Positions 16,501-56,018 of a DNA stretch of 64,000 bases are shown piece after piece. This DNA comes from Spirochaetota bacterium (GTDB taxonomy: Bacteria; Spirochaetota; Spirochaetia; Treponematales; UBA12059). The stretch is from NCBI GenBank assembly GCA_029560805.1, contig JAKQKE010000019.1, forward strand, positions 2,684 to 66,683. The letters run 5' to 3'. The translations under genes were made by a program, and so were the position numbers. Position 1 is the first letter of the stretch; each line of letters begins with the position of its first letter. The notes beneath the pieces were generated by a model that worked only from the letters and a program-made list of their open reading frames with translations, was not told the origin of the DNA and did not search any database.

Positions 16501-17685
16501 GACGGCGCCTACCGCTACGTCGTGCGATCCGAGGACCCGGCCGGCAACAAGACCGAGAAAGCCATCCAGAGGATGGTCGTCGATACCAGGCAGACTCAGG
16601 CCTTCGTCACCGCCAGCGCAGCCGGCTTCAGCCCGAACGGCGACGGCATGTTCGACGAGATGTCCTTCGGCCTGGTCGTGAAGTTGACCGACGGCATCGA
16701 TTCCTGGAAGCTGGCCATGGTCGGCGATGACGGCGTCACGCGCCGCTCGTTCACGGGCAAGGGCGCGACCATTCCCGCCAAGCTGGCCTGGGACGGCAAG
16801 TCCGACGACGGTCAGCTCAGGCAGGGCGCCTATACCGCCGTCTTCACGGTCGATTACCTCAAGGGCGACCGCGCGCAGGCCTCCAGCGCGACATTCTCCC
16901 TCGATACCGAGGGGCCGAAGGTCGCCATGACGACCTCGCCCCGTTATTTCAGCCCCGATAACGATGGCGTCGACGACGAGCTCAGGATATCGCTCGCCGT
17001 CTCCGACGCCAGCGTGATCGACTCCTGGCGCTTCGACATCGTCGAGGTGGCCGTGAGCGAGAGCGCCGGCGCCAAGCGGGCGGAGCGCGTCTTCTTCTCG
17101 TGGAGCGGCCGCGGCAAGCCGGCCGAGCGCCTGGCCTGGGACGGCCGCTCGCAGAAGGGCGAGCTGGTCGAGGCCGCGACCGATTACCCGTACCGCTTGA
17201 CCATCGTCGACGAGCTGGGCAATCAGACGGTCTCCGAGGGGCTCATCTCCGTGGACGTCCTGGTCATCCGCGACGGCGACCGGCTCAAGATCAAGGTCCC
17301 GTCGATCGTGTTCAGGCCGGACTTCGCCGACTTCAAGGACCTGCCGCAGGAGACCCTCGACCGCAACGCCGAGGTGCTCAAGCGCATCGCCCAGATCCTC
17401 AACCGCTTCAAGGACTACAAGATCCGGGTGGAGGGCCACGCCAACTCGATCGCCAAGATGACCGGGGCAGGCCAGCCGGCGATCGACCGGGAGGAGACCA
17501 GGGAGCTCCTGCCGCTGTCGGAGAATCGGGCCGCGCTCGTGATGCAGAAGCTCATCGAGTACGGCGTCGACCCGAAACGCCTGTCGGTACGGGGGCTGGG
17601 CTCCTCCGAGCCGGTCGTGCCGTTCACCGACGCCGAGAACCGGTGGAAGAACCGCCGCGTCGAATTCATCCTGATCAAGGAATAG
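13579..17685 (+). CDS. Giant envelope protein: N-terminal domain, ~8 FlgD-Ig-like repeats and a C-terminal OmpA/MotB peptidoglycan-binding domain
   Basis: ATG at 13579 with SD AAGGAG 7 nt upstream; signal peptide MILRAKPLALIAIASLALSLAAA. Recurring FSP(D/N)GDGxKD...WDGxxDxGxxxPDGxY modules. C-terminus RVEGHANS...NRAALV...NRRVEFILIKE is OmpA-like. Confidence 0.85.
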   Translation: MILRAKPLALIAIASLALSLAAAYDPPSGAETAASLASPALLAGGYSAASTESPMADLANPAASAAQQRLTLDLSYGALVGLADDTGWGSALNLGIAVPRAYGVWTGYLGLLSSPFGSMPLGTVVTGRVGLAKDLYPDLLLGLAVDTRLGSNGGFGWGLAADLGVIGLAGDVGALKNLVWGASLRNMGKAFEAPGAVGLSGGLASAYDAPFTPQVGASADLIRADKAGLKLSANADLWLPTFQNAVFATGLRLGWRDRAFLRLGWDFNLREAIAGVDQGLLPSFGLGASFAIDRESDDSLLSKAGLDRSEIRPSFSAAELYGGVWAFSGGANVPVGVLDRVPPRITVSYPAVEHDAYYISPNSDGARDLLTLPLSITDQRYVQSFSLKVLDESGAVVKTMANKESRPENQDLKGLLGRLLYVKKGVDVPAELEWNGLTDSGAAAPDGRYFVVIEAVDDNGNVASTERWPVVIDTVPPSVKASGPAGDALIFSPDGDGSKDEFAIAQEGSVEDSWVAVVTDAAGATVRSWTTASAAPSALRWDGKNDSGKVVPDGVYSYRVAAVDRAGNQGSARIDNIIVNTQQPPVGVSIDLAAFSPDGDGVKDSLTLTPNVPVKAGLASWRLAVLDDKGVERWAASGVGADSIEPAYRFSGKDASGAALPEGTYRTRLSVSYVNGHGPVAHSPNFVIDVTPPAASVSVGRAAFNPLGDADATLTLSQAGSTEERWAGELLDASGAPVKTWIFIGKPDPTVIWDGSDDAGKVVPDGSYAYRLSATDKAGNSGSATGPAIVVDTQNKAVRLSLDRRAFSPNGDGVADTVAMVPESQSATAVQSWSLTVVDAADAKVRGYSGSGSLPARLSWDGRRDDGSKAPDGIYRAALEVRFVTAEVESARSVDLALDVTPPAIELSAAETLFSPNGDGRKDVLSIRQTSTPGDTWEGAILDSAGRVMRAWTWKDAAVDFDWDGADSEGNKVADGAYRYVVRSEDPAGNKTEKAIQRMVVDTRQTQAFVTASAAGFSPNGDGMFDEMSFGLVVKLTDGIDSWKLAMVGDDGVTRRSFTGKGATIPAKLAWDGKSDDGQLRQGAYTAVFTVDYLKGDRAQASSATFSLDTEGPKVAMTTSPRYFSPDNDGVDDELRISLAVSDASVIDSWRFDIVEVAVSESAGAKRAERVFFSWSGRGKPAERLAWDGRSQKGELVEAATDYPYRLTIVDELGNQTVSEGLISVDVLVIRDGDRLKIKVPSIVFRPDFADFKDLPQETLDRNAEVLKRIAQILNRFKDYKIRVEGHANSIAKMTGAGQPAIDREETRELLPLSENRAALVMQKLIEYGVDPKRLSVRGLGSSEPVVPFTDAENRWKNRRVEFILIKE
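14600..17260 (+). repeat. Intragenic array of ~8 divergent Ig-like domain repeats (~100-110 codons each); boundaries approximate
   Basis: Anchor motifs occur in order: ISPNSDGARD, FSPDGDGSKD, FSPDGDGVKD, FNPLGDADA, FSPNGDGVAD, FSPNGDGRKD, FSPNGDGMFD, FSPDNDGVDD. Each is followed by a W(D/N)G...PDG(x)Y motif. Confidence 0.75.
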
Positions 17686-17688
17686 AGC

Positions 17689-17925
17689 ATGCCGTACGAG
17701 GGAGTCCTGGCCATCGTGTCCATCTTCATAGTGGCGCCGTGCATCGTGTTCGGCTTCATCCTGCTCGCCAAGCGCGGCCGCAATCGGGTGGACCTGGCCC
17801 GTTGCGCTGTCCGCGAGAAGGAGCTCGAGCTGGAGCGCGAGCGCCTGCGCCTCGAGGCCCTGCAGCTCGAGAACCGCAAGCTCGACCTGATGATCGAGCA
17901 TCGGATCGACTCCCTCAAACCCTAG
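17689..17925 (+). CDS. Small single-pass membrane protein with cytoplasmic coiled-coil
   Basis: 78 aa, starting 4 nt after the OmpA-gene stop. TM segment LAIVSIFIVAPCIVFGFILLA, then REKELELERERLRLEALQLENRKLDLMIE. Confidence 0.5.
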   Translation: MPYEGVLAIVSIFIVAPCIVFGFILLAKRGRNRVDLARCAVREKELELERERLRLEALQLENRKLDLMIEHRIDSLKP

Positions 17926-18020
17926 CCGGGGCGATCGCCTCATCAAGGCCCGGGACGCGCGTTCATCGCGGCCCGGGCCTTTCCTTGATTCTATCGGGAA
18001 TTTTGCATATAGTCGTAGGC

Positions 18021-18917
18021 ATGCCAATACCAGAATACCCTGAATTCGCCCCGGTGACCGTCGACATGCGCGACGACCTCTACCCGGCCCTCAACCTGCT
18101 AGCGGACGGCGTGTCGGAGTTCACCTTCTCCGGCCTCTACCTGTTCCGGGACACCTACAAGTACACCGCGTCGCATATCAGCGGCTCCACCTACGTAATC
18201 TCCGGCGAGAAGCGCGGGGAGCGCTTCTTCTTCACGCCGTGCTGCATCCCGCCGAACGCCACGCTCGAGCGCCTGTTCGAGGATCACTGCTACCTCAAGA
18301 ACATGTCCGAGAGCCAGTGCAAGGCCGAGCGCATCCGCCTCGAGGCCGCCGGCTACGAGGTCCACGAGGACCGCGACAACTTCGACTACCTGTACGACCG
18401 TAAGGATCTCGCCGAGCTGTCGGGCAAGGCGTACCATAAGAAGCGCAACCTGGTGAACGCCTTCCTGAACTCGTACTCGTACGAGCAGAAGGAGCTCGAC
18501 GCCTCGAACGTCGCCGACGCTATCCGCGTCCTGGACGCGTGGCGGGTCGAGAAAGGCATAGACGGCGACTATGCGGCCGCCAGGGAAGCGCTCGAGCTGT
18601 ACGAACGCCTGGGCATGCGCGGCGCGGTCTACTACGTCGACGGCAAGCCGGCCGGCTACGCGCTCGGCGAGCCTATCGCCAAGGCCCGCATGTTCGCCGT
18701 GCACTTCGAGAAGGCGACCGGCGACTATAAGGGCATCTACCAGTTCATCAACCAGGCCTTCGCCCAGGCCCTGCCGCCCTACTTCAGGCAGGTCAACCGC
18801 GAACAGGACCTCGGCGACGAGGGGCTCAGGCAGGCCAAGATGACCTACCGCCCCAGCGGCTTCGTGCGCAAGTACCGCGTCATGCCGACGAAGCCGTCCT
18901 TCCTGCCCGAGGCTTAG
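18021..18917 (+). CDS. DUF2156 domain protein (MprF C-terminal / aminoacyl-lipid synthase-like GNAT fold)
   Basis: The in-frame ATG at 18021 gives 298 aa. FDYLYDRKDLAELSGKAYHKKRNLVNAF and the following region match my recollection of the DUF2156 family signature. The upstream part of ORF 17100-18917 overlaps the OmpA gene and was discarded. Confidence 0.6.
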   Translation: MPIPEYPEFAPVTVDMRDDLYPALNLLADGVSEFTFSGLYLFRDTYKYTASHISGSTYVISGEKRGERFFFTPCCIPPNATLERLFEDHCYLKNMSESQCKAERIRLEAAGYEVHEDRDNFDYLYDRKDLAELSGKAYHKKRNLVNAFLNSYSYEQKELDASNVADAIRVLDAWRVEKGIDGDYAAAREALELYERLGMRGAVYYVDGKPAGYALGEPIAKARMFAVHFEKATGDYKGIYQFINQAFAQALPPYFRQVNREQDLGDEGLRQAKMTYRPSGFVRKYRVMPTKPSFLPEA

Positions 18918-18920
18918 GCG

Positions 18921-19997
18921 ATGGGCGGGCGGATGAGCTTCGACGAGTTGACGACGACCGGCCTGTCGCGGGCCTTCTCGGCCCGTCGTGGCCTGCCTGA
19001 GGCGGCCGCGTCGACGCTAGGAGTCCGGGACTCGGACGGGCTGGCGCTCGAGCTCGCTGGGCGGACCTGTTGCCTGACCATGCTCGCCGGCTCGGGCTCG
19101 CGCTGGGTAGCCTCGCTGGAGGCGGCCAGGGCGGCCGGCCGGGATATGGGCGCCGATCCCAGAGCGCCGCGCGGCCTCTATCCCGTCCGTAACGCCATGC
19201 CCTTCGGGCCGGACCCGGCGCCGATCGCCTCGTACGCGCTCGCGGCCGTACGCGACCTCGGCCACCACGTCATCGTCGTGCGGGGCTGGGAGCGCGAGAT
19301 CGAGGAGCGCATCCTCGGGCCGTTCGGCTTCGCGCCAGGCTCGTATCGCTTCGCGACCCAGGGCGCCCCCGGCGGTAAGCCGCGCGGCCATGGCGACGCC
19401 GCGTTCCAGACGCTCGGCCTATGGTCCGGCTACGACTACGTGACGGTGAACTTCGGCGGCGACGCCTCGAGCCCGTTGACCGCCTTGGCCTCGCTCGCCG
19501 CGATGGCCGCGCTGGAGCGCGAACTCGGCGACCGGGCCCCGGGGCTCCTCCTGCCGGCGGCCCTCGTCGACTCGCCGGCCTACCCGATAGGCCTAGGGCC
19601 CGGCGGCCTACCGGCGAGCTTCGGGCACGCCAAGCTGCGGGGGGGCGCCGCGAAAGCGGGCGGGGCGGTCGAAAGCGGCGCCGCCGGCTACACCAACGTC
19701 GGCCTGCGCGTCTACCGCGCCGAGGCGCTACGCGAGGCCATCGAGTCGATACGGGAACGCTACTGGAGCCCGGACGGGGGCTACGCGATACCGGGCAACG
19801 CTCCTGCCTCGGACGACCTGGGCGGCGAGTTCGCCCTGGACAACGTCGACGCGCTACTCGCGGCCGAGGGGCGCGCGCGCCTCCTTCCCATTGCCAAACC
19901 CGAGGAGCTGTCGCCGGTCAAGAGCCTCGACGATCTGCCGCGCTTCGAGCGGGACGTCGGCTCGGTGTGTCGAGACTGGTCCGGGCCCGGCCGCTGA
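18921..19997 (+). CDS. Putative UDPGP-family nucleotidyltransferase (sugar-1-phosphate uridylyltransferase-like)
   Basis: 358 aa, starting 3 nt after the DUF2156 stop. The glycine loop LTMLAGSGSRW and KPRGHGDA resemble the LxGGxGT and PxGHGD motifs of UDPGP enzymes. Confidence 0.4.
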   Translation: MGGRMSFDELTTTGLSRAFSARRGLPEAAASTLGVRDSDGLALELAGRTCCLTMLAGSGSRWVASLEAARAAGRDMGADPRAPRGLYPVRNAMPFGPDPAPIASYALAAVRDLGHHVIVVRGWEREIEERILGPFGFAPGSYRFATQGAPGGKPRGHGDAAFQTLGLWSGYDYVTVNFGGDASSPLTALASLAAMAALERELGDRAPGLLLPAALVDSPAYPIGLGPGGLPASFGHAKLRGGAAKAGGAVESGAAGYTNVGLRVYRAEALREAIESIRERYWSPDGGYAIPGNAPASDDLGGEFALDNVDALLAAEGRARLLPIAKPEELSPVKSLDDLPRFERDVGSVCRDWSGPGR

Positions 19998-19998
19998 C

Positions 19999-22047
19999 CT
20001 AGTCGAACAGCGGCAGCGGCTTGGAGAAGTGGTAACCCTGGCCGTAGTCGACGCCCAGCTCCACCAGCTTGTCCTTGATCGCCGGGCCCTTGACGAATTC
20101 GGCTATCGTCTTGAGGCCCATCACGTGGCCGATCGAGTTGATCGATTCGACCATCGTGTAACTGACCGGGCTCTCGTCGATGTTCTGCACGAACGAGCCG
20201 TCGATCTTGATGTAGTCGACGGGTAGCGTACGTAGGTAGCCGAAGGACGAGAAACCGGCGCCGAAGTCGTCGAGGGCGAAGGTGAAGCCCTCGACCTTGA
20301 GGCGGTTCATGAAGCGCGTCGCGTAGGACAGGTTCTGGATCGCCGCGGTCTCGGTAATCTCGAAGCAGAAATCGCTGGCCTTGAGCGAGTACTTGTTCAG
20401 ATAGTACAGGATGGTGTCGATCAGCGCGTCGTCGAGCAGCGCCGGGCCCGAGAGGTTGATCGAGAAGATCCGGTCGGCCAGCGGCGACCCCTGGTCGGAC
20501 AATAGCCTGAACGCCCGCATCGAGTTCTCGAGCACCCAGCGGTCGACCTGAGGCATCAGGTTGTAGCGCTCGGCCGCCGGGATGAAGTCGGTAGGCCCGG
20601 AGATGCTGCCGTCCTCGTTGACCAGGCGCAGTAGTATCTCGATCTTCGGCTCGGCGCCCGCGCCGAGCGGCTCGATGGGCTGGTAGTAGAGCAGGAAGCG
20701 GTTCTCCTCGACGGCCCGGTTGATCTTGCCGATCCACTCCATGTCGCCGCGCCGCCGCTTGAACTTGCTGTCCTGGGCGCTGAAGATCGTTATCTTGTTG
20801 CCGCCTTCCTCCTTGGAGATGTGGCAGGAATCGTCCGCGGCCGCGAGCACCGCGTGGATGTCGCCGGCGTCGCGGTCGATCGGCACGATGCCGATGCTCA
20901 GGGTGATGGGAAACGTGGTCGCCTGCCATTGGAAGCGCTGGCGCTGTACCGCGCCCTGGAGGCGGTTGCCCACGTTGATCGTGTCCTCGAGCTCGCAGTT
21001 CATCAGGATGATGGCGAACTCGTCGGCGCCTATGCGCGCCGAGAGGTCGTTGCGCTGGATATTGGTCTGGACGTGGCTGGCTATCTGCCTGAGGAGCTCG
21101 TCGCCGGCGAGGGTGCCGCAGGTGTCGTTGACCGCCTTGAAGCGGTCGATGTCCAGCACGAGCAGGGCGTGCGAGCCGCCGACCATCTTGACGTTCTTGA
21201 GTATCTCGCTGAGCTTGTAGCTGAATTCCTCGCGGTTCGAGAGGCCGGTCAGGCTGTCGTGGCTCGACTGGTAGTTGAGCGAGTCCGATAGGCGCCTGAG
21301 CTCGGTGATGTCGCGCATCGTGATGAGGTAGCCGTCGGTCGAGTTGGCCTGCTCGTGGATCTTCGTGATCGCCCCGTCGAGCACCACGGTCTGGCCCGCC
21401 AGGTTCCTGAGCGACACGTCGGTGAAGAAGGTGGAGCGCTTGCCGACGTTGATCATGCCGGTGAGCATGTCGCTCTTCGTCGCCGGGTCGAGGATCGATA
21501 GGATGGTGCCGACGTGCTTGCCCTTGGCCTCGCGCTCGCTCGTCCCGACGATATCCTCGGCCACCTGGTTCATGAAGCTGACGTTCAGGTCGGTGTCCAG
21601 GGCGACGATGCCGTCGTTGATGGACTGCAGGATGGCGCTGAACAAGCGCTCTTGGCGGGTCAGCCGACTGGCCATCTCGTGCTTATAGAGGGCTATGTCT
21701 ATCGTCGTATAGAGCTCGCGCTCCTTGAACGGCTTCAGGATATAGCCGTACGGCTCCACTTCCTTGGCGCGCTCGAGCGTCCTCTCGTCGGTGTAGGCGG
21801 TCAGGAAGATGATCGGGATATCCTTGGACGCCTTGACGGCCTTGGCGGCCTCGACGCCGTCCATGTCGCCGGCCAGCATTATGTCCATCAGAATGATGTC
21901 GGGGGTGAGCTCGAGCGCCATCGCGACGGCTTCGGTCCCTTCGCCGGCCATTCCGACGACGTCGTATCCGAAGCGCTCCAGCCTGCGCTGGAGGTCTATC
22001 GCGATGATCTTCTCGTCCTCGACTATCATGATGCGTTCGTTATTCAT
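19999..22047 (-). CDS. Response regulator with REC-PAS-GGDEF(degenerate)-EAL architecture (c-di-GMP phosphodiesterase type)
   Basis: 682 aa. REC domain (MIVEDEKII...ILMDIMLAGDMDG); GGDEF domain with the A-site changed to RIGADEF; EAL domain with EILLR, EITE, DDFGAGFSS, KIDG and QGY motifs intact. Confidence 0.85.
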   Translation of the reverse strand: MNNERIMIVEDEKIIAIDLQRRLERFGYDVVGMAGEGTEAVAMALELTPDIILMDIMLAGDMDGVEAAKAVKASKDIPIIFLTAYTDERTLERAKEVEPYGYILKPFKERELYTTIDIALYKHEMASRLTRQERLFSAILQSINDGIVALDTDLNVSFMNQVAEDIVGTSEREAKGKHVGTILSILDPATKSDMLTGMINVGKRSTFFTDVSLRNLAGQTVVLDGAITKIHEQANSTDGYLITMRDITELRRLSDSLNYQSSHDSLTGLSNREEFSYKLSEILKNVKMVGGSHALLVLDIDRFKAVNDTCGTLAGDELLRQIASHVQTNIQRNDLSARIGADEFAIILMNCELEDTINVGNRLQGAVQRQRFQWQATTFPITLSIGIVPIDRDAGDIHAVLAAADDSCHISKEEGGNKITIFSAQDSKFKRRRGDMEWIGKINRAVEENRFLLYYQPIEPLGAGAEPKIEILLRLVNEDGSISGPTDFIPAAERYNLMPQVDRWVLENSMRAFRLLSDQGSPLADRIFSINLSGPALLDDALIDTILYYLNKYSLKASDFCFEITETAAIQNLSYATRFMNRLKVEGFTFALDDFGAGFSSFGYLRTLPVDYIKIDGSFVQNIDESPVSYTMVESINSIGHVMGLKTIAEFVKGPAIKDKLVELGVDYGQGYHFSKPLPLFD

Positions 22048-47944: not shown

Positions 47945-48964
47945 ATGAAGGCCTTACCGACTCTGTTGTGCATCCTCGCGGCCACTACGGCGACCGCGGC
48001 GCTCCCCGCCCAGCCCCTGCCTATCCTGGAGCCGCCCGGGGGCATGAGGCGTGGCGAGCCTGGCATCGCCGCCTTGACGCTCCCGGCTATCGACGGCCCA
48101 GCGAGCGCTTATACGCTATCGGTGCGCTACGCCGATGGCGCTGACGGCCCGACCTATCGCGGTTTCGCGGCGCCGCGGGGCGGACCGGGCAAGGCCGGCC
48201 TCGGCCGGGAGATCCCGTTCGCGGGGCCGTCGGCGGCGTCGGTACGGAGCTTCGTCGTCCTGTTCATGCTGTCGGCGCCTCTCGACGCGCCGCTCGGCGA
48301 AGCCTCGATGGTGGCGCGTGGGCCGGACGGCGAGGCCCTAGCCGGCGCCCGCTTCTCCGTCGGCGCCCGCGAGTTCGGCCGACAGGACCTGTGGCTCGAC
48401 GAGGCGTTGACGAGCATCAGGGTCGATCCCGACCCCGCGAAGACCGAGCAGGCCATCCGCTACCAGGCCCTGCTCTCGTCGGTCGACCCCGAGGCGGCCT
48501 TCCTGGACTCCGGGTTCTCGATGCCCGTGGCCACTGAACGACGTACCACTTTGTTCGGCATGAGACGGCGCTATGTCTACGCGGACGGCGGCGTCGAGGC
48601 GTCGACGCATAACGGCATCGATTACGGCCTGCCGACGGGAAGCCCCATCGTCGCCCCGGGACGGGGCAGGGTCGTCATGGTCGAGGACCGTATCGTGACC
48701 GGCAAGACCGTCATCTTGGAGCACCTGCCCGGAACCTACAGTATATATATGCATCTGGACGGCTTCGATCCGAGCCTGGCGCTCGGGGCGGTGGTCCCGC
48801 GAGGCTCGCCGCTCGGTACGGTCGGCATGACCGGACTGGCCACGGGGCCGCATCTGCACTGGGAACTACGCGTCATGGGCCAGGCCTGCGACCCGGAGGC
48901 CCTCGTCGGCCTTGACAAAGTGCCGTGGATCCGTACAATGATGCCCGCTATCGAGGGGAGGTGA
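47945..48964 (+). CDS. M23-family metallopeptidase (secreted)
   Basis: Signal peptide MKALPTLLCILAATTATAALPA. HNGIDYGLPTGSPIVAPGRGRVV and GLATGPHLHWEL (HxxxD / HxH motifs). Confidence 0.85.
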   Translation: MKALPTLLCILAATTATAALPAQPLPILEPPGGMRRGEPGIAALTLPAIDGPASAYTLSVRYADGADGPTYRGFAAPRGGPGKAGLGREIPFAGPSAASVRSFVVLFMLSAPLDAPLGEASMVARGPDGEALAGARFSVGAREFGRQDLWLDEALTSIRVDPDPAKTEQAIRYQALLSSVDPEAAFLDSGFSMPVATERRTTLFGMRRRYVYADGGVEASTHNGIDYGLPTGSPIVAPGRGRVVMVEDRIVTGKTVILEHLPGTYSIYMHLDGFDPSLALGAVVPRGSPLGTVGMTGLATGPHLHWELRVMGQACDPEALVGLDKVPWIRTMMPAIEGR

Positions 48965-48970
48965 TTTTCT

Positions 48971-49180
48971 ATCAGCCAGATACTAGTCGACGATAACGAG
49001 CCGCTCGAGAAGGCCATCAAGCGCTTCAAGCGCATGGTCGAGAAAGAGGGCATCATCCGCGAGTGGAAGAAGCGCGAGTTCTTCGAGAAGCCTTCTACCA
49101 TCCGGAACCGCAAGGAGAAGGCCATGAGGCGCAAGCTCCTTCGTAAGTCCCGCAAGCCCCGCGATGGCAAGTCCTACTAG
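48971..49180 (+). CDS. rpsU: 30S ribosomal protein S21, apparently initiated at a non-canonical ATC codon
   Basis: The frame reads (I)[54 protein letters not shown], a clear S21. It is open only from 48965. There is no ATG/GTG/TTG before the conserved KRFKR motif. SD GGAGGTGA (48957-64) lies 6 nt before the ATC. Confidence 0.8.
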
Positions 49181-49201
49181 GGACTGATTCGGTACACGAC
49201 G

Positions 49202-49227
49202 GACCCCGGCTATGCCGGGGTCTTTTG
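49202..49227 (+). terminator. Rho-independent terminator after rpsU
   Basis: GACCCCGGC tat GCCGGGGTC followed by TTTTGT. Confidence 0.8.
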
Positions 49228-49251
49228 TATGTTGGGATCGAACCCAGCCGC

Positions 49252-50952
49252 CTAGCCGAACCTGGCCAGAGCCGCTGCGAGTACGGCGAGCCCGCCGAGG
49301 AACGCCATGACCAGGCCGGCGAAGCTACGCGGCCGGCCTCGGATGGCCGCCGCCAGACGCTTGCCGGGTTTGGACATGGCCAGGCCGAATACTGCCGCTC
49401 CGAGCGCCAGGGTCTGGAGCGCCTTGAGCAGGTTCGCCGCCGTGAACGCGCCGCCCGCCGGCGGTGGCGCGCCGAGCAGGCGGCTTACGGCGGCAGTCGT
49501 CGCGTCCGCGAATAAACCCGTCGCGACGCACAATGAGGCGAGGATCAGCATGGACGCCTTCATCGTCCCTCCGATCCTGAGGCCCGGTACGGAGCCGGCA
49601 ACGCCGGCGGCATCGGCCGGGGCGCCTCGCCTAGCCGGCAAGAAGATCATCGAGAGCTTCAGGAACGACGCCACGGTGCAGGCTCCCGCGGCGAACAGCG
49701 CCCAGTATCGCCAACCGCCCTTGAACAGGTAGCCGATGGCGTTCTTGCTGGCGAAACCGTTGAGCGGCGGCAGGGCCATGATGGACAGGGCCCCGACGGC
49801 GTAGGCCACGCCGACGAGGCGGAACCGGTCCCCGGACTTGCCGAGCGTCCCGGCGGCGCCACGCAGCTCGTAGACGTTCCGGGTACCGGCCGCGTCCGTA
49901 ATGGTGCCGACGCTCAGGAAGAGGAGGCCCTTGAAGAGCGCGTGGTAGAAGGCGTGCAGGAAGGCGGCCGCCATGGCCGCCGGGGCTCCGAGGCCCCAGG
50001 CCGCCACCACGTACCCGATCTGGCTGATGGAGTGGTACGCCAGTAGGCGCTTGGCATCCTTCTGCGATAGGGCGACGACGACAGCCGCCAGCGCCGTTAC
50101 GACGCCCGCCGAGCCTATCAGCGCCATCGCTTCCTGCCCCGACGGCAGGTAGCCCAGCAACCGGCCGAGGGCGAACAGCGGCGTCTTGATGAGTACGCCG
50201 GACAGGATGGCCGATACCGCATGCGGGGCCAGGGCGTGGGCGTCGGGCAACCAGCCGTAGACCGGCATGACGGCGACGCGTATCGCGATCGCGGCGGCCA
50301 GGCAGGCGGTCGACATCGTCGCGATGGCGCCTCCGCCGTCTGGCAGGGCTACGAGAGCCGCTTGGATTCCCTCGTACGATAAGGTACCCGTCACCCTATA
50401 GAAACCGAACAGCCCGAATAAGAAGAAGACCATGGCGGCCGAACTGACGGCCAGGTAGCTGAACGCCGCCAGGAAGGCGCCGGGCTTCTCGGAGCTGGCG
50501 ACCAGCACGTACGACGCCAGCCCGAGTATCTCCAGGCAGACGAACAGATTGAAGAGGTCGGCCGTCGCGGCGGTCATCGCGAGCGCCGAGGCCTGGATGA
50601 GGTAGACGGTCGTGAAGAGCGGCCCCTTGGGACCGTTGCCGCGCGAGTACAGGTAGGCGGCACCCGCGCCCGTCAACCCCAGGACGTCGACGAGCCAGGT
50701 AAGGCCGTCGAAGCGCTGGGCTATGCCGATGGCGCCGGACCAGCCCGATACGGTAAACGATACGCCGCCGGCCAGCACCCTGGGTAGCATCGCGGCGAGC
50801 GCCGCCCAGGGGAGCGCTAGCCCGATGAAGGCGCCGGAGTCTTCGAGCGCCCGCGCCTTCGCGCCGCCGTGTAGCGCCTTGGCGAGCAAGGACAGGGCGG
50901 CTCCGGCGAGCGGTAGGAATACCGGGAGCATCGCGAGTTCGGAGTCACTCAT
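49252..50952 (-). CDS. mrpD: Mrp/Mbh-type antiporter-like subunit (MrpD/MbhH, NuoM/N family)
   Basis: 566 aa, polytopic. Proton-antiporter-like sequence (e.g. SQIGYVV, FHALFKGLLFL). It is the last gene of the operon. Confidence 0.8.
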   Translation of the reverse strand: MSDSELAMLPVFLPLAGAALSLLAKALHGGAKARALEDSGAFIGLALPWAALAAMLPRVLAGGVSFTVSGWSGAIGIAQRFDGLTWLVDVLGLTGAGAAYLYSRGNGPKGPLFTTVYLIQASALAMTAATADLFNLFVCLEILGLASYVLVASSEKPGAFLAAFSYLAVSSAAMVFFLFGLFGFYRVTGTLSYEGIQAALVALPDGGGAIATMSTACLAAAIAIRVAVMPVYGWLPDAHALAPHAVSAILSGVLIKTPLFALGRLLGYLPSGQEAMALIGSAGVVTALAAVVVALSQKDAKRLLAYHSISQIGYVVAAWGLGAPAAMAAAFLHAFYHALFKGLLFLSVGTITDAAGTRNVYELRGAAGTLGKSGDRFRLVGVAYAVGALSIMALPPLNGFASKNAIGYLFKGGWRYWALFAAGACTVASFLKLSMIFLPARRGAPADAAGVAGSVPGLRIGGTMKASMLILASLCVATGLFADATTAAVSRLLGAPPPAGGAFTAANLLKALQTLALGAAVFGLAMSKPGKRLAAAIRGRPRSFAGLVMAFLGGLAVLAAALARFG

Positions 50953-51283
50953 GACCGATGCGCCTCTTGATCTCGTCGATATCCAGCGTGCCGAAATGGC
51001 GGTACAGCCTATACGCCAGCGTCAACGCCAGGGCCGATACGCATACGCCGACGACGATGGCCGTCAGCATGAGCGCCTGGGGTATGGGATCGACGAACAG
51101 CTTTCCCGCCCCGCCGAGTAGCGGCGCGTCGGACCCGATCGCGGCGCCTTCCAATACGAACAGGATGACGATGGCCGAGTTCATTATTGCCAGGGCATAG
51201 GCCTTCTTAATAAGGTTCCGCTTGGTGACGAGCCCGGCCAGCCCGGTCCCGAACAGCGCGAGGACCAATAAACGACGTATCAT
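50945..51283 (-). CDS. mrpC: Mrp subunit C / NuoK-like (MbhG-like)
   Basis: The start ATG at 51283 overlaps the upstream stop (ATGA). MIRRLLVLALFGTGLAGLVTKRNLIKK is typical of MnhC/NuoK. Confidence 0.75.
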   Translation of the reverse strand: MIRRLLVLALFGTGLAGLVTKRNLIKKAYALAIMNSAIVILFVLEGAAIGSDAPLLGGAGKLFVDPIPQALMLTAIVVGVCVSALALTLAYRLYRHFGTLDIDEIKRRIGHE

Positions 51284-52044
51284 TCCTGGTCGCCCCCGAG
51301 CATCATCACGCACAGCAGCGCGACGCCGGAACCAACCTTAAGGCCTATGCCGATGTTCAGGGCGATGATCGGGCCCACGGCGGCGACGCCTTTAGCGGCG
51401 ACGCCCGCGGATGCGCCGGTAGCCTCGATCAGGCCTGCAAGGGCCGCGCCGGAGCCGGGGAACGACAGCGCCAGGACGGTCGCGAAGGCTATCGCCTCGA
51501 TGACGGACAGCGTGCGCGGTCCGAACGCCGTGATGCTCGGGCTGATCCTGCCTATCCCGCCGGCTCGCCTTCCAATGGCAATGAAGATGACTCCGGACGC
51601 CAGTACGACGCCGCCTTGGAACCCGCCACCCGGCGAGGTGTGGCCGTAGAGCATCACGTAGGTGCCGAAGAGGAGCACTATGGGCGCGAGCTTGCCGGCG
51701 ATGACGTTGATGATGTCGGTGTGGCCGGGGCCGCGAGAGTCGGCCGGCCCCCCGTCCCGGTCCAGGTCGGGACGGCCTGGAGTCGAGGCGACCAGGGCCA
51801 CGGAGCCGGCCAGGGCGACCAGGAGCACTATCGTCTCCCCGAGCGTGTCGAAGGCGCGATACCCGAGGTAGATGGCGCTGACCAGGTTCGTAGCGCCTGT
51901 GGCGGCGTAGCCGTCGGCGGCGATGGTATCCCGAGCCGCGGTCGGCCAATCGACGTCGGACATGACGACCGGCGCCAGAACCGCCAGCGCCAAGGACGCC
52001 GCGGCCAGACCGGTCGCGGCCGAGAGCAGCTTGCCGCGCCTCAC
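51280..52044 (-). CDS. mrpB: MnhB-domain protein with an MbhE-like N-terminal half (MrpB/MbhE-F fusion)
   Basis: NLVSAIYLGYRAFDTLGE (MbhE-like) and GHTSPGGGFQGGVV (MnhB signature). The GTG at 52044 overlaps the upstream stop (GTGA); the ATG at 52080 is an alternative. Confidence 0.7.
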   Translation of the reverse strand: MRRGKLLSAATGLAAASLALAVLAPVVMSDVDWPTAARDTIAADGYAATGATNLVSAIYLGYRAFDTLGETIVLLVALAGSVALVASTPGRPDLDRDGGPADSRGPGHTDIINVIAGKLAPIVLLFGTYVMLYGHTSPGGGFQGGVVLASGVIFIAIGRRAGGIGRISPSITAFGPRTLSVIEAIAFATVLALSFPGSGAALAGLIEATGASAGVAAKGVAAVGPIIALNIGIGLKVGSGVALLCVMMLGGDQE

Positions 52045-52274
52045 GAGCGGTCCGTCCGTTCCGTATTGCGTATCGCCCATACGAAGATGATGGTCGACAG
52101 GCCGGCGCCCACCGCCGCCTCGGTTATGGCGACGTCCGGGGCCGAGGCCAGGAAGAATATCGACGCCGATAGGACGCTGGTCACCGACAGCGCGATGACC
52201 CCATGGAGCAGGTCTCTGGCGAGGATGGCGTAGATCGAGGCCGCCACCACGATGGCGAGTATGGCCTCAATCAT
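52041..52274 (-). CDS. DUF4040/MbhD-like small membrane subunit (equivalent to the MrpA C-terminal segment)
   Basis: 77 aa; ILARDLLHGVIALSVTSVLSASIFFLASAPDVAITEAAVGAGLST resembles MbhD/DUF4040. Confidence 0.6.
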   Translation of the reverse strand: MIEAILAIVVAASIYAILARDLLHGVIALSVTSVLSASIFFLASAPDVAITEAAVGAGLSTIIFVWAIRNTERTDRS

Positions 52275-52638
52275 CGTCGTCTCCCGCCACCTTCGCCCCC
52301 GGCTTCCTGGCCCGAGGCGCCGTCCGCGGCGCTATGCCCGAGTTCCATGCGTACTTGGCGATGATATGAGTCGTGGTAGGGTTCGATATAAGGAAGAACG
52401 CGATGATGACGACCATGCGCGCGGCTATCGCCACGGACGGCGCCGTAACGAGCGCCGCCAGTAATACAGAAAACGTGGCGGTCGTGCCGACGAGCGACGA
52501 AGCCTGGAGCCTCGTATAGGGATCCTTCTGGAGTAGCATGCCGAGGGTCCCGGCGATCGCGAAGACCGAGGCCACCGCGCACAACGCCATGCCCGCTAGG
52601 TCCCTGGCCAGGTTGACCGCGTCGAGGGCTTGGCTCAT
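52267..52638 (-). CDS. mrpG: Mrp subunit G (MnhG/PhaG family)
   Basis: 123 aa; GTLGMLLQKDPYTRLQASSLVGTTA matches the MnhG GxxRxPDxxxRxH-like region. ATGA overlap with mrpF. Confidence 0.75.
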   Translation of the reverse strand: MSQALDAVNLARDLAGMALCAVASVFAIAGTLGMLLQKDPYTRLQASSLVGTTATFSVLLAALVTAPSVAIAARMVVIIAFFLISNPTTTHIIAKYAWNSGIAPRTAPRARKPGAKVAGDDDD

Positions 52639-52922
52639 CGTGGCGCCTCCGGCGGCGACCCGGAACGGCTCGCCCTGGTATAGGTGGCGATGGCCAGGAT
52701 GCCGAGGAAGCCGAAGATGTCGTAGACGAGGGCCACGTCGAGGAAGGCCGCCCTGGCGCCCATGGCTCCGCTGATGGCGAGGATGGCCAGCACGATGGCC
52801 GAGACGGCCGCGAGCGTGGTCAGGCGGTCGACCGTCGTCGGGCCAATCGCCAGGCGCAGCGTCATGGCCATGGCGCAGGCGGCGAAGATCCGGATGGTCC
52901 AGTCGAAGGCGACGGCCATCAT
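52635..52922 (-). CDS. mrpF: Mrp subunit F (MnhF/PhaF family)
   Basis: LRLAIGPTTVDRLTTL...DVALVYDIFGFLGILAIA is typical of MnhF. The ATG at 52922 overlaps the mrpE stop (ATGA). Confidence 0.75.
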   Translation of the reverse strand: MMAVAFDWTIRIFAACAMAMTLRLAIGPTTVDRLTTLAAVSAIVLAILAISGAMGARAAFLDVALVYDIFGFLGILAIATYTRASRSGSPPEAPR

Positions 52923-53431
52923 ACCCACATGCCCCCGATTATCGATTCCAGTCGGCCCTTCACGGTCTCGCCCGCGCGCCTCGAGTGCCTGGTCGTGGAG
53001 TTGAGCCAGTGCACGATCAGGTGGTCCTCGTCCAGGTCGATGACGATGGTGCCCGGCGTGAAGGTGATGGCCTCGGCCAGTACGACGCGCGCGAGGTCCG
53101 ATTTCAGCCGGGTCCTGAAGTGCACGACCCTCGGGGCGGCCGAGCCGGTCATGAGCGTCCGTAGCGTGGCGAAGCTGGACGAGTACATCGCGGCGACCAG
53201 CCTGGCCGGATACGCGAGCGCCGGAAGGAGCCTCGGGAAAACCATGTTCTTGCCGGCCTCATGCTCGTCGATGAAGGTGTCGTACGAGGCCAGTGCGATC
53301 AGGGCCGCGCACGAGGCGCCCGCCAGGATGGATAGCCAGCCGTTGTCGGCCGAGAAGAGGAGCCATACGCCGCACAGGAAGCCGAAGGTCGCGGCGACGC
53401 GAACGAGCGTCCAGAGCTTGCGGGGCGTCAT
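52919..53431 (-). CDS. mrpE: Mrp subunit E (MnhE family)
   Basis: 170 aa; AEAITFTPGTIVIDLDEDHLIVHWL is the MnhE signature. Confidence 0.75.
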   Translation of the reverse strand: MTPRKLWTLVRVAATFGFLCGVWLLFSADNGWLSILAGASCAALIALASYDTFIDEHEAGKNMVFPRLLPALAYPARLVAAMYSSSFATLRTLMTGSAAPRVVHFRTRLKSDLARVVLAEAITFTPGTIVIDLDEDHLIVHWLNSTTRHSRRAGETVKGRLESIIGGMWV

Positions 53432-53436
53432 GGGGC

Positions 53437-53892
53437 TCAGCCCTTTCCCATGATCAGCTCGCCCAGGGCCCGGCCGTCGGCGGCTTCCCTGGCTGCCACC
53501 CTGAACGCCGGGTCGTGCAGGACGCGAATGAGCTTCGAGAGGATGCGCAGATGCTCGCCCGCGCCGTCCCTGGGCCCGACTATGGCGAATACGAGGTCGA
53601 CGGGCCGGCCATCGGAGGCGCCGAAGTCCACCGGCGAGCCGAGCCTCAGGACGGCCATGGACAGGCTCCCGGCCTCGTCTATCAGGGCGTGCGGTATGGC
53701 CACCCCGTTACCGACGCCAGTGGATGAAAGCGTCTCCCGCGCGCCCATGGCCATCTCGACGGCGGCGGCTCCGGCCGCGTCGCCCGATGGGCTGAGCAGC
53801 TCGCTCGCCGCCCGTAGGGCGCCGGCCTTGTCCCGGGCCTCGACGCCGACCCTGATCCGGCCCGGCTCGAGCACGTCCGCGAAACGCATCAT
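53437..53892 (-). CDS. PTS EIIA-2 (EIIA-Ntr/PtsN-like) domain protein
   Basis: STGVGNGVAIPHA (phosphorylatable His) and VDLVFAIVGP. The ATG at 53892 overlaps the stop of the upstream P-II-like gene (ATGA). Confidence 0.7.
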   Translation of the reverse strand: MMRFADVLEPGRIRVGVEARDKAGALRAASELLSPSGDAAGAAAVEMAMGARETLSSTGVGNGVAIPHALIDEAGSLSMAVLRLGSPVDFGASDGRPVDLVFAIVGPRDGAGEHLRILSKLIRVLHDPAFRVAAREAADGRALGELIMGKG

Positions 53893-54254
53893 ACTGTCGG
53901 CTCCTTCAGGTCGCTGGAGCGCGGCTCGGCGAAGCCGTAGCCCCATTCCACCGGTATGGTAAACATGACGCCGGTCCCCGGCTGGGAGATGCCCCCGGTG
54001 ATCTCGTCGAGTATCGGCACGAGGCGCTCGACGGCCTTGTCGTCCTTGACGACCGACAGGATCGTCTTGTTGTAGGGCTTGTTGCCCTTGAGGAATTCCT
54101 TGAAGCCGGCGAATAGCGGTACTTCATAGGCCAGGAAATAGCCGAGGCCCTCCGAGTCGAGGATGGTGGCGCCCGGTAGGCCCGCCTCGACGTAGGCCTC
54201 GAGTACCTCCTCGAGGAGCTCTTCCTTGTTGAGTATGAACACGAGTAGCTTCAT
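53889..54254 (-). CDS. P-II-like (GlnB-fold) small signalling protein
   Basis: MKLLVFILNKEELLEEVLEAYVEAGLPGATILDSEGLG..., then a long loop and a second beta-alpha-beta half, with a P-II-like length (~121 aa). The ATG at 54254 is used; the ORF-track start is a TTG. Confidence 0.55.
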   Translation of the reverse strand: MKLLVFILNKEELLEEVLEAYVEAGLPGATILDSEGLGYFLAYEVPLFAGFKEFLKGNKPYNKTILSVVKDDKAVERLVPILDEITGGISQPGTGVMFTIPVEWGYGFAEPRSSDLKEPTV

Positions 54255-54263
54255 GGATCCAGT

Positions 54264-54355
54264 AGTATCGGCCGGTCCGGCACGGGCTGTCAAGGAAAAG
54301 CTGCCGAGAACTCCCGTACGTCAAGCATTGACGGCGGGGATGCCTACGCTATAGA
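54264..54355. promoter_or_regulatory. Back-to-back putative sigma70-type promoters, each with its -10 hexamer 9 nt from an ATG
   Basis: Plus strand: TTGACG (54328-33), 16 nt, TATAGA (54350-55), ATG at 54365. Minus strand: TTGACA (54293-88), 18 nt, GATACT (54269-64), ATG at 54254. Confidence 0.35.
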
Positions 54356-54364
54356 AAAGATGGG

Positions 54365-55657
54365 ATGGATACGACTGTATACTCGGCGCGGCACCACGAC
54401 TTCGAGGGCGACTCACGACGCGGGAAAAAGCTCGTCGCGGCCCTCGCGCTCTATCTGCTGGCCATAGGCTTAACCTTCTCCGGCTTCGACCCGGCCCGGT
54501 TGCTGAACGGCCTGCGCGTCATCATCGTTTCGCCCGACCTGCTCATAGACGACTATACGAGCATCGCGGGCGTAGGGCCCGCCTTCTTCAACGCGGCCCT
54601 CTGCACGCTCGTGATCGTCCTGCTCCTGAAACGCTCGAGGGTCGAGGTGACCGGGCCTGTCATAGCCGGCGTATTCACGGTCGCTGGCTTCTCCCTGTTC
54701 GGCAAGAACATAGCGAATATCCTGCCCGGTCTGCTCGGCGTCGTGCTGTACGCCAAGGCGAACAATCGGCCGTTCAGCGAGAGCGTCATCGTGGCCTTGT
54801 TCGGGACGGCCTTGGCGCCCCTGTCGAGCAGCGTCGCGTTCGGGCTGGGCATACCCGTCCCGTGGAACATTCCGGTCGCGGTCGCCGCCGGTACGGCCAC
54901 CGGCTTCTTCCTCTCGCCTATAGCCCGGCACGTACTCGACTTCCACCGCGGCTACAACCTCTATAACATGGGCTTCGCAGCCGGGTTCGTCGGCACGGTC
55001 ATCATGTCGACGCTCAAGGCTTTCGGCGTACCGGTCGAGGGCGAGTTCCATTGGGCCCAGCTCGGGCCGGGCTACGTCGCGCCCTGCCTGATCGCCCTGT
55101 TCGTCGCGCTGATCGTCTACGGCATGATCGTCGACCGCGACTGGCGTTCGTCCTACCGCCTGCTACTGGGATCCTCGGGACGGCTCGTCAGCGACTTCGT
55201 CCGCTTCTACGGACTCGGCGCGACGATGGTCAATATGGGGCTGATGGGGCTGATGGCGATGGCCGCGATCCTGTTGATAGGCGCCTCGTGGAACGGCCCG
55301 ATGATAGGCGCCGCGCTGACCATCGTCGGATTCTCCGCGTTCGGGAAGCACCCGCGCAACGCCCTGCCGCCGATGCTCGGCGTGGCGTTCATGGCCTCGC
55401 TGTCCCGTTACGGCCTGTCGTCGCCGTCCAGCCAGCTGGCTGTGCTCTTCTCGAGCACCCTGGCTCCCGTTACGGGCGAGTACGGCTTCGTGCCGGGCTT
55501 CATCTCCGGGATGCTGCACCTCGTGCTCGTGCAGGTGGTCGGATCGCTGCACGGCGGGCTCGACCTGTATAACAACGGCTTCTCCGGAGGCCTGGCGGCC
55601 GGCCTCTTCGTCCCCGTGCTCGAGTGGATCCGCGAATGGAGGAAGCATGAAGCATGA
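54365..55657 (+). CDS. DUF1576-like polytopic membrane protein
   Basis: 430 aa, ~10-12 TM segments. FSLFGKNIANILPGLLGVVLYAK and an internal duplication-like second half (FSAFGKHPRNALPPMLGV). The family name is from memory. Confidence 0.5.
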   Translation: MDTTVYSARHHDFEGDSRRGKKLVAALALYLLAIGLTFSGFDPARLLNGLRVIIVSPDLLIDDYTSIAGVGPAFFNAALCTLVIVLLLKRSRVEVTGPVIAGVFTVAGFSLFGKNIANILPGLLGVVLYAKANNRPFSESVIVALFGTALAPLSSSVAFGLGIPVPWNIPVAVAAGTATGFFLSPIARHVLDFHRGYNLYNMGFAAGFVGTVIMSTLKAFGVPVEGEFHWAQLGPGYVAPCLIALFVALIVYGMIVDRDWRSSYRLLLGSSGRLVSDFVRFYGLGATMVNMGLMGLMAMAAILLIGASWNGPMIGAALTIVGFSAFGKHPRNALPPMLGVAFMASLSRYGLSSPSSQLAVLFSSTLAPVTGEYGFVPGFISGMLHLVLVQVVGSLHGGLDLYNNGFSGGLAAGLFVPVLEWIREWRKHEA

Positions 55658-56018
55658 CGCAGCGCAGTTGATGCGGGTGGCGGAGGAAGTGCTCAAATAT
55701 TTCTATAACAAGGGCGCCAGGTCCGTAAAGGTATCGTACGACTTCGGTGACCAGCGCTCGTTCTGCGCCGTGCACGCGAAGGACCTGGTCCTGTCGCCCG
55801 AGGACGAGGCGTACATCCAGAACGTGTTCGAGGCGCCGGTGCAGCCCGAGATAGCGAGCTATTACGGCATCCTGGTCGGCCGCAGGCGCGACGAGCAGGA
55901 GATGCAGCTGGTAGGCACCATGGCCGACCTCGAGGATCTGAAGAACGAGGAAGGCCTCGGCGTCGTCATCGTGCTGAGCCGGAGGGAGATGGAGTTCCGA
56001 TCGTCGAAGAAAGGGTAG
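55647..56018 (+). CDS. Hypothetical cytoplasmic protein
   Basis: 123 aa. The start overlaps the DUF1576 stop by 11 nt (ATGAAGCATGA). Composition looks genuine (lower GC3, Lys/Glu/Tyr content). Confidence 0.4.
   Translation: MKHDAAQLMRVAEEVLKYFYNKGARSVKVSYDFGDQRSFCAVHAKDLVLSPEDEAYIQNVFEAPVQPEIASYYGILVGRRRDEQEMQLVGTMADLEDLKNEEGLGVVIVLSRREMEFRSSKKG

Follow-up and report, generated by a model that had tools for sequence, protein, structure and literature searches.

A nine-gene operon with two soluble genes ahead of seven membrane genes

We analysed a 64-kb stretch of DNA from a Spirochaetota bacterium (contig JAKQKE010000019.1), referred to here as the window, and in particular a set of genes on its minus strand at 49252-54254 that encode a PII-like signalling protein, an EIIA protein resembling PtsN of the phosphotransferase system (PTS), and seven membrane subunits of the Mrp type. 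In the list of open reading frames (ORFs) of the window these are nine consecutive minus-strand ORFs that form one gene run, held together by seven start/stop overlaps of 4 or 8 nucleotides (nt) and by one 5-nt gap, which separates the EIIA stop from the MrpE start. An earlier reading of this DNA from its letters alone (the sequence-only reading) had described nine packed same-strand genes, and every junction that it listed was verified in the sequence: ATGA at 53889-92, 52919-22, 52635-38 and 51280-83, GTGA at 52041-44, and the 8-nt overlaps ATGATTGA at 52267-74 and ATGAGTGA at 50945-52. Judged from this arrangement, the locus is one operon with two soluble genes ahead of seven Mrp-type membrane genes.

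The first gene of the operon (53889-54254, minus strand, as are all nine) encodes the PII-like signalling protein, which has 121 amino acids (aa), begins with MKLLVF, and was assigned by a Pfam P-II (PF00543) match of 22.8 bits, under the gathering threshold of 25, together with a profile search of the PDB and an AlphaFold2 model searched with Foldseek. The second (53437-53892) encodes the EIIA-2/PtsN-like protein of 151 aa, with His68 in GNGVAIPH and a PTS_EIIA_2 match of 96 bits. There follow a MrpE/MbhA-like subunit (52919-53431; 170 aa; MNHE, 92.5 bits), a MrpF/MbhB-like subunit (52635-52922; 95 aa from the ATG at 52922, as in the public gene calls, with an alternative GTG start at 52928; MrpF_PhaF, 31.5 bits), a MrpG/MbhC-like subunit (52267-52638; 123 aa; PhaG_MnhG_YufB, 61.7 bits) and a MbhD-like subunit (52041-52274; 77 aa; MbhD, 73.6 bits), the last of which corresponds to the portion of the MrpA C-terminal region (transmembrane helices TM17-21) that MbhD represents. 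A fusion of MbhE with MbhF/MrpB comes next (51280-52080; MbhE, 29.6 bits, and MnhB, 56.9 bits, in one protein); it would have 266 aa if it started at the ATG at 52080 and 254 aa from the GTG at 52044, and the latter start is favoured because an overlap of 4 nt is the commonest between the MbhD and MbhE/B genes among orthologs. The operon closes with a NuoK-like MrpC/MbhG subunit (50945-51283; 112 aa from the ATG at 51283, again as in the public gene calls; Oxidored_q2, 75.7 bits) and a single antiporter-like subunit related to MrpD and MbhH (49252-50952; 566 aa; Proton_antipo_M, 152.9 bits), hereafter the D subunit.

All seven membrane genes score above their Pfam thresholds, and the NCBIfam families for subunits E, F, G, B, C and D agree. 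Thus the domains that had been read from the sequence (PII-like, PTS-EIIA-2-like, MnhE/F/G, MbhD-like, MbhE+MnhB, MnhC and MrpD-like) were recovered by Pfam, with P-II the sole match below threshold. The same nine genes, together with a convergent gene for ribosomal protein S21, are called in four public assemblies of the same organism (GCA_035388065.1; metagenomes), which use the starts at 52922, at 51283 and, in one assembly, at 52044 that the sequence-only reading had implied. No paralog of any of the nine genes, and no second antiporter-like gene, is present elsewhere in the window.

The pair and the Mrp genes are linked across Spirochaetota

We scanned genomes with the PII-like protein, using one genome per species (GTDB) and keeping 80 of the 230 loci, and scored the gene order in these relatives by tblastn with the nine window proteins. 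Nearly all of the loci come from Spirochaetota (Breznakiella, Salinispira, Alkalispirochaeta, Sphaerochaeta, Pleomorphochaeta, Oceanispirochaeta and Treponema metagenome-assembled genomes (MAGs) among them) and a few from elsewhere, namely Fermentibacteraceae and Vecturithrix. The EIIA gene directly follows the PII-like gene in 78 of the 79 loci that extend far enough. Where more than 5.2 kb was available after the PII start (55 loci), Mrp genes follow the pair in 52 and the full nine-gene order is kept in 49. Moreover, the genes are closely spaced: the median gap is 2 nt between the PII-like and EIIA genes and 1 nt between the EIIA and MrpE genes, and gaps of no more than 30 nt occur in 76/78 and 70/70 cases, respectively. 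Because about 50 other species-level genomes show the same order with the genes just as close together, the arrangement is not a matter of chance, and the linkage noticed in a single sequence is present in related genomes. The flanks are not conserved (the largest cluster of shared flanking genes covers 6-7 loci), and by these comparisons the nine-gene unit is one that moves as a block. (Note that in one MAG contig, L018:13200-14200, the D gene is curtailed after MrpC and a different gene, guessed from its sequence to encode a GntR-type regulator, comes next, which reflects either loss of the gene or an assembly that is chimeric.)

A hydrogenase or MrpA partner was sought in 41 loci by clustering of flanking genes and by Pfam counts, and the only related gene found to recur was a second copy of MrpD. 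This second D copy occurs in three loci (L055, L061 and L062), the other orthologous loci having one D gene. Among the 122 ORFs downstream of D in the 41 loci there is no hydrogenase, NuoH, NuoD or NuoB family among those matched by at least two ORFs. Likewise, genes for MbhJ, MbhK, MbhL, MbhN, MbhM and MbhI are absent beside the operon in the window and do not recur in the 41 loci. The hydrogenase or MrpA partner that would have made this an ordinary operon of its kind is thus not a recurrent neighbour in orthologous loci.

The membrane genes encode a stand-alone group 3 Mrp module

The membrane genes follow one another as E-F-G-MbhD-MbhE/B-C-D; they include one MrpD-type subunit, and both MrpA and redox genes are absent. 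A module of this class, the stand-alone group 3 Mrp encoded by mrpEFGBB'CD (PF1147-53), has been studied genetically in Pyrococcus furiosus (Haja et al. 2021, PMC8415708; group definitions also in PMC5703873). Deletion strains indicate that it uses Na+ and supports growth during acidification of the medium, and it is described as being without an energy-input module (PMC8415708). Like the operon in the window, it has an E-F-G-(MrpA C-terminal/B domains)-C-D order with one MrpD-type subunit, and it has neither a MrpA N-terminal module nor a redox module. The two differ in three respects. MbhD and MbhE are fused and MbhF is separate in P. furiosus, whereas in the window MbhD is separate and MbhE and MbhF are fused as in MbsE; the P. 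furiosus operon is without a PII-like or EIIA gene; and a lysine in TM7 of the P. furiosus D subunit is an arginine here. By gene content and order, then, the membrane part is a stand-alone group 3 Mrp, a known class and not a new one. The sequence-only reading had known of no description of the whole combination; the MrpA-less, hydrogenase-less module is in fact a recognised one (PMC8415708), and it is its pairing with PII-like and EIIA genes that appears to be undescribed.

That reading had also recognised a subunit order of the Mbh type, and this agrees with the structural matches: the best PDB match of the D subunit is MbhH (6CFW_H, 127 bits) and that of the MbhE/B fusion is MbsE (6U8Y_E). 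Indeed, the membrane arms of the membrane-bound hydrogenase MBH (MbhA-H; 6CFW) and of the sulfane reductase MBS (6U8Y) have the same subunit set in the same order. In contrast to MBH and MBS, genes for MbhI, J, K, L, M and N do not accompany the operon in the window and do not recur beside its orthologs, which argues that the module is not a hydrogenase or a sulfane reductase. We considered whether the module might instead be the ion-translocating arm of a larger respiratory complex (a hydrogenase, or a formate- or CO-dependent complex) whose redox genes lie elsewhere, with the PII-like and EIIA proteins regulating that complex. The best matches of the subunits, being MBH and MBS chains, would fit this, as would the frequent occurrence of group 3 Mrp modules within respiratory complexes (PMC8415708). 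Nonetheless, we regard it as highly improbable given that no MbhM/NuoH-, NuoD- or NuoB-type gene recurs beside the cluster in the 41 loci, that none stands beside the operon in the window, and that group 3 Mrp modules are already established as stand-alone systems.

The D subunit keeps the TM5 glutamate, the TM8 lysine and the TM12 lysine. At residue 225 (codon at about 50278-50280), which corresponds to the TM7 lysine site of MbhH, MrpD and NuoM, it has an arginine that is invariant in 57/57 orthologs, including both copies in the two-D loci, and that is also found in five PII-EIIA-Mrp loci from metagenomes. A lysine occupies this site in three PII-Mrp loci that lack EIIA (L146, L148 and L167), and MbsH has a glutamate there, so that the position varies between functional classes. 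These observations raise the idea that the module is not a classical Na+/H+ antiporter and that it may instead exchange another ion pair (such as K+/H+) or be a gated uniporter or channel that needs both regulators. With the TM5, TM8 and TM12 residues all conserved, and with the subunits of the Na+ module present and conserved as well, we consider a departure of that kind very unlikely.

(The D subunit also carries a C-terminal extension of about 100 residues, at about 465-566 or 49252-49560, with two to three hydrophobic stretches. It is an extension relative to MbhH (510 aa) and MrpD (493 aa); E. coli NuoL aligns as far as residue 534. This element might resemble TM15 or a lateral helix.)

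The first gene encodes a member of the PII superfamily that is not a canonical PII

The PII-like protein is the one operon product whose Pfam match falls under the threshold; three further results support its membership. Relatives of the protein exceed the P-II threshold (P0126 and P0130, for example, at 32-33 bits), and a family profile run against the PDB finds PII proteins only, weakly, at an E-value of about 1e-3. An AlphaFold2 model built from a 67-sequence alignment has a pLDDT of 90 and a pTM of 0.77. (It supersedes an earlier model from 16 close homologs, for which the pLDDT was 63 and the Foldseek E-values were weak.) The predicted structure has the ferredoxin-like fold of PII, with its twofold beta-alpha-beta repeat, and the best Foldseek matches listed for it are GlnB/GlnK-type and PII-like (PotN) structures at a probability of 1.0; against the PDB there are 153 matches at E≤1e-3. 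By profile and by predicted structure, the small protein is a member of the PII superfamily. Thus neither of the two small proteins fails to reach its proposed family, the first being placed there by PDB profile, relatives and Foldseek and the second by Pfam.

We take the MgATP/2-oxoglutarate residues of canonical PII to be Q39, K58, G87-D-G-K90, R101 and R103, with modification at Tyr51 or Ser49. When the protein is aligned to 2GW8 and 2EG1, K58 is kept (as K63), Q39 is replaced by phenylalanine and GDGK by GTG(I/V), R101 and R103 are without counterparts, and the alignment contains no YRGAEY T-loop motif in which Tyr51 or Ser49 could be modified. The T-loop is about 8 residues longer than in canonical PII and is confidently predicted in the AlphaFold2 model to form two short helices. 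The neighbours of the gene are EIIA and antiporter genes, and there is no linkage to amtB, glnA or nif. On these sequence comparisons the protein is not a canonical PII. The earlier description of it as nucleotide-sensing is unproven, since Q39, K90, R101 and R103 are not conserved.

At about 70% identity across Spirochaetota genera, the PII-like protein is the most conserved product of the operon, above any Mrp subunit. An exhaustive search over 1.84 billion cluster representatives found 738 clusters at E≤1e-3, 238 (clusters at 50% identity) at E≤1e-10 and five at E≤1e-30, which indicates that the spirochaete proteins are one tight branch of a sizeable family. The subfamily is thus large and very conserved, and it is currently annotated only as 'P-II family nitrogen regulator' or 'hypothetical', labels that are probably misleading. 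Cultured carriers among the homologs include Salinispira pacifica, Sphaerochaeta associata, Breznakiella homolactica, Spirochaeta lutea and Pleomorphochaeta. We also considered phosphate transfer from EIIA to the PII-like protein; the protein encoded in the window contains no histidine and no cysteine, which makes such transfer unlikely, and the idea was rejected.

The second gene encodes a PtsN-like EIIA protein

The sequence-only reading had proposed a PTS-EIIA-2-like protein with the histidine of GNGVAIPHA, and this proved correct by the Pfam match and by alignment to EIIA-Ntr. In particular, the EIIA-Ntr structures 2A0J and 1A6J match best in the PDB, and the phosphorylatable histidine is aligned with that of PtsN from E. 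coli and N. meningitidis. Within the operon family, His68 in the motif G-x-G-[IV]-A-[IV]-P-H is conserved in 78/79 orthologs. Against NCBIfam the best match is to PtsN (TIGR01419) at 86.7 bits, under the cut-off of 138.7, and NF008145 is matched at 72.1 bits, under a cut-off of 221. The gene stands in a Mrp operon and not in a rpoN-hpf-ptsN context. By its profile scores, the protein is EIIA-2/PtsN-like and lies outside the PtsN equivalog cut-off.

A motif search that covered the 64-kb window found no match for HPr (His15/Ser46), for the active site of EI or for the P-loop of HprK. Treponema denticola has been reported to have HPr and HprK/P though it lacks PTS permeases, according to Gonzalez et al. 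2005 as cited in PMC2937029.

The pair occurs beside a second class of antiporter in other phyla

A metagenome scan with an 8-sequence subset of relatives that are 35-50% identical returned 80 loci. PTS_EIIA_2 is the upstream neighbour of the PII-like gene in 36/46 and the downstream neighbour in 11/47. Of the other same-strand neighbours, the most frequent are Na_H_Exchanger (10) and the Mrp set of MNHE (8), MrpF (8), MnhG (7), MnhB (6), MbhE (6) and MbhD (5). When only loci flanked on each side by 2.5 kb or more were counted (n = 25), 17 have an adjacent EIIA gene, 10 have exchanger genes and six have Mrp genes in the same-strand run. A map of the individual loci gives two main architectures, EIIA-PII followed by two exchanger genes and PII-EIIA-Mrp. 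The former is seen in Aminicenantes, where EIIA, PII and two Na_H_Exchanger genes of the CPA (cation/proton antiporter) type are joined by 4-nt overlaps in the public gene calls. A few metagenome loci have PII-Mrp or PII-exchanger arrangements without EIIA. That the pair stands beside an unrelated antiporter class in other phyla suggests that it is probably an undescribed antiporter control module, as far as gene neighbourhoods can indicate.

Gene fusions bring these components closer still. Two natural proteins, P0211 and P0251, combine EIIA_2 with a PII-like domain, and the P0211 gene is flanked on both sides by Na_H_Exchanger genes; these fusions argue that the two soluble proteins contact each other. 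In addition, locus L055 (a Candidatus Vecturithrix MAG with two D genes) has no separate EIIA gene in its PII-Mrp operon, and directly after the two D genes it encodes a 658-aa Na_H_Exchanger protein with a C-terminal PTS_EIIA_2 domain (L055:16311-18287). (Two further fusions were observed among the proteins P0183 and P0167, one of the PII-like domain with PilZ (405 aa) and one of a PrmC-type methyltransferase with the PII-like domain (422 aa).)

These arrangements bear on whether the two soluble proteins might be structural subunits or assembly factors, forming a cytoplasmic cap at the face that the hydrogenase module occupies in MBH or the MrpA N-terminal module in classical Mrp. The tight gene spacing suggests equal dosage, the PII-like protein is extremely conserved, above any Mrp subunit, and the group 3 Mrp of P. 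furiosus is described without an energy-input module, all of which such a cap might account for. Set against this, the P. furiosus Mrp does without both genes, as does a second Mrp-like cluster in locus L021, some PII-Mrp loci have no EIIA, the pair also accompanies single-gene CPA exchangers that need no such cap, and the conserved phosphorylatable histidine points to signalling; a structural role for the pair is therefore, in our estimation, quite unlikely. (The second cluster of L021, a Salinispira MAG, lies about 2 kb downstream at 17026-20257, is 27-43% identical, and has no PII or EIIA gene of its own.)

The T-loop differs with the class of antiporter

Among the Mrp-linked PII-like proteins, the T-loop (residues 33-64) is 91% identical whereas the core is 67% identical. 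When pairs of proteins with a core identity of 0.30-0.50 were compared, T-loop identity was 0.86 for two Mrp-linked proteins, 0.63 for two exchanger-linked proteins and 0.52 for one of each. Moreover, the Mrp-type T-loop is unchanged in the EIIA-less loci L146, L148 and L167, which argues that the T-loop tracks the antiporter and not EIIA. This pattern is as expected of a loop that docks on a transporter, by analogy with GlnK-AmtB and SbtB-SbtA; we take the difference between classes as a hint because shared ancestry confounds the comparison.

A putative gate for cation/proton antiporters

Taken together, the gene contexts and the analogies drawn below lead us to favour, as reasonably probable, the view that the two proteins together form a post-translational gate for cation/proton antiporters. 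The PII-like protein, presumably trimeric, would dock on the cytoplasmic face of the antiporter through its long, structured and conserved T-loop and would serve as the docking and ligand-sensing element, with EIIA acting as a phosphorylation-dependent modulator. In particular, EIIA would bind the PII-like protein, the antiporter or both according to the phosphorylation state of His68, which a PEP (phosphoenolpyruvate)-dependent EI/HPr(NPr) relay would set. The effect might resemble that of unphosphorylated PtsN, which inhibits the K+/H+ antiporter YcgO in E. coli. The PII-like protein could thereby supply in trans the cytoplasmic region that these antiporters lack, and the pair could couple Na+(K+)/H+ exchange, and with it cytoplasmic pH and ion homeostasis, to the carbon and energy status of a fermenting anaerobe. 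By analogy with the P. furiosus phenotype, the role probably lies in homeostasis of pH and Na+(K+), coupled to the flux of carbon through fermentation.

Both halves of this proposal have precedents. In E. coli, the CPA1 K+/H+ antiporter YcgO is inhibited when PtsN in its unphosphorylated form binds to the cytoplasmic region of the transporter, and the interaction is weaker once PtsN is phosphorylated (PMC11808508); PtsN also regulates TrkA and KdpD (reviewed in PMC13104625). As in the PtsN-YcgO/CvrA system, a PtsN-like EIIA with a conserved phosphorylatable histidine is associated here with a cation/proton antiporter. However, E. coli ptsN lies in the rpoN operon, apart from its target genes, whereas EIIA here is encoded with the antiporter; PtsN contacts YcgO at the antiporter's own cytoplasmic CorC/RCK region, a domain that is missing from the antiporters here, which are encoded together with a PII-like protein; and EIIA here, unlike E. 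coli PtsN, falls under the PtsN equivalog cut-off. On the PII side, GlnK-AmtB, SbtB-SbtA, PotN-PotABCD and CPII-DAB (with its NuoL-like DabB) all have a small PII-fold protein in a transporter operon, as here, and PotN is among the structural matches of the PII-like protein. They differ in their targets, which here are putatively Mrp and CPA antiporters, in the T-loop, which here is of greater length and predicted to be helical, and in the ATP/2-oxoglutarate residues, which here are not conserved. To our knowledge, near-obligate pairing or fusion with EIIA is not a feature of the known transporter-linked PII systems. The nearest published context is the PII gene reported at the end of operons for a NuoL homolog and YbcC (DAB; PMC5700660). 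Thus neither a PII-like protein in a transporter operon nor the action of PtsN on an antiporter is new in principle, and it is the regulatory pairing of the two that appears undescribed. In the open-access full-text literature we found no description of the PII-like subfamily, of its near-obligate pairing or fusion with EIIA, or of an association of that pair with Mrp and CPA antiporters, an absence that is no proof.

Several observations weigh against a dedicated gate. The support for gating is gene context throughout, and the comparison of T-loop classes is confounded by phylogeny. The residues for MgATP/2-oxoglutarate (Q39, K90, R101 and R103) are not conserved in alignments of the PII-like family, and no EI or HPr/NPr gene was found by motif search in the window. 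Arg225 lies in the sole antiporter-like subunit, so that ion coupling may differ from that of characterised Mrp systems. Finally, PII-EIIA pairs stand without Mrp genes in three loci (L042, L059 and L071), and 9/25 of the well-flanked metagenome loci have no antiporter nearby.

The last two of these indicate that the pair may have other targets, and we accordingly weighed the idea that it is co-transcribed with the antiporter and acts mainly elsewhere, for instance on K+ transporters, transcription factors or enzymes of metabolism, in the manner of PtsN and GlnB; its place in the Mrp operon would then serve only for co-expression under ion or pH stress. The stand-alone pair of L059 comes from a MAG that also has the full operon, a Ser/Thr protein kinase gene comes right after the PII-like gene in six metagenome loci, and PtsN of E. 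coli has many targets. The recurrence of the pair beside two unrelated antiporter classes in different phyla, the fusion of an EIIA domain to Na_H_Exchanger, and a T-loop that follows the antiporter class even in the absence of EIIA (L146, L148 and L167) speak the other way, and make it unlikely that the main targets lie elsewhere. (The stand-alone pairs are paralogous and lie at L042:9998-10812, L059:10001-10826 and L071:10001-10827, and their T-loop reads NKPRNKT and not NKPYNKT. The full operon in the MAG of L059 is L003; in L042 a convergent gene for a SpoIIE-type phosphatase comes after the pair.)

We thus retain the antiporter gate as the preferred explanation. Of the dedicated control that the sequence-only reading had claimed, the contextual part is strengthened by the second antiporter class, by the EIIA+PII and Na_H_Exchanger+EIIA fusions and by the class-specific T-loop, while the regulation itself is something that we infer from gene context. 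A broader version of the gate, which we advance tentatively, is that this hitherto unrecognised PII-like subfamily and a PtsN-like EIIA interact physically and gate antiporters of two unrelated architectures (group 3 Mrp and CPA-type exchangers) in several phyla, so that PTS and PII would act on one target; the pair may further be needed for the function of Arg225-type Mrp modules.

What drives and controls a group 3 Mrp with neither MrpA nor a redox module is a question raised by the P. furiosus study, and dedicated soluble partners would provide an experimental handle on it. More generally, PTS-Ntr and PII are the two main bacterial systems for carbon, nitrogen and energy signalling, and each is known, separately, to touch ion transport. 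Here they stand side by side, sometimes fused, beside antiporters, which predicts a direct complex of PTS protein, PII protein and transporter.

Flanking genes and transcription signals

The operon runs towards a convergent rpsU (S21) gene on the plus strand at 49034-49180 (public gene calls), and a sequence scan found a GC-rich hairpin between the two at 49201-49223. The hairpin is followed by a T-tract on the plus strand only and is thus taken as the rpsU terminator, in keeping with the convergent terminator that had been read at this end of the operon. The rpsU ORF has 48 aa by canonical start codons, and the public gene calls give 48 or 53 aa; this is presumably shorter than expected for S21, and the true start may be non-canonical.

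Upstream of the operon, a consensus scan gave a sigma-70-like promoter candidate (TTGACA-18 nt-GATACT; 54264-54293, minus strand), which is a pattern match. The site stops 10 nt ahead of the first ATG and no Shine-Dalgarno sequence is visible, which suggests that the first gene is nearly leaderless and, as read from these signals, that the operon mRNA is too. The divergent intergenic region (54255-54364) is 110 nt long and contains no Rfam element upstream of the PII-like gene; a riboswitch or leader RNA was considered and dropped when an Rfam E-value scan of 48500-55000 returned only a chance RRE match at 14 bits. Transcribed divergently from the operon is a gene for a DUF1576 membrane protein of 430 aa (54365-55657, plus strand), the end of which is overlapped by a 123-aa ORF with no Pfam match (55647-56018, plus strand). 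Because they are kept in the five closest loci only, both lie outside the conserved unit.

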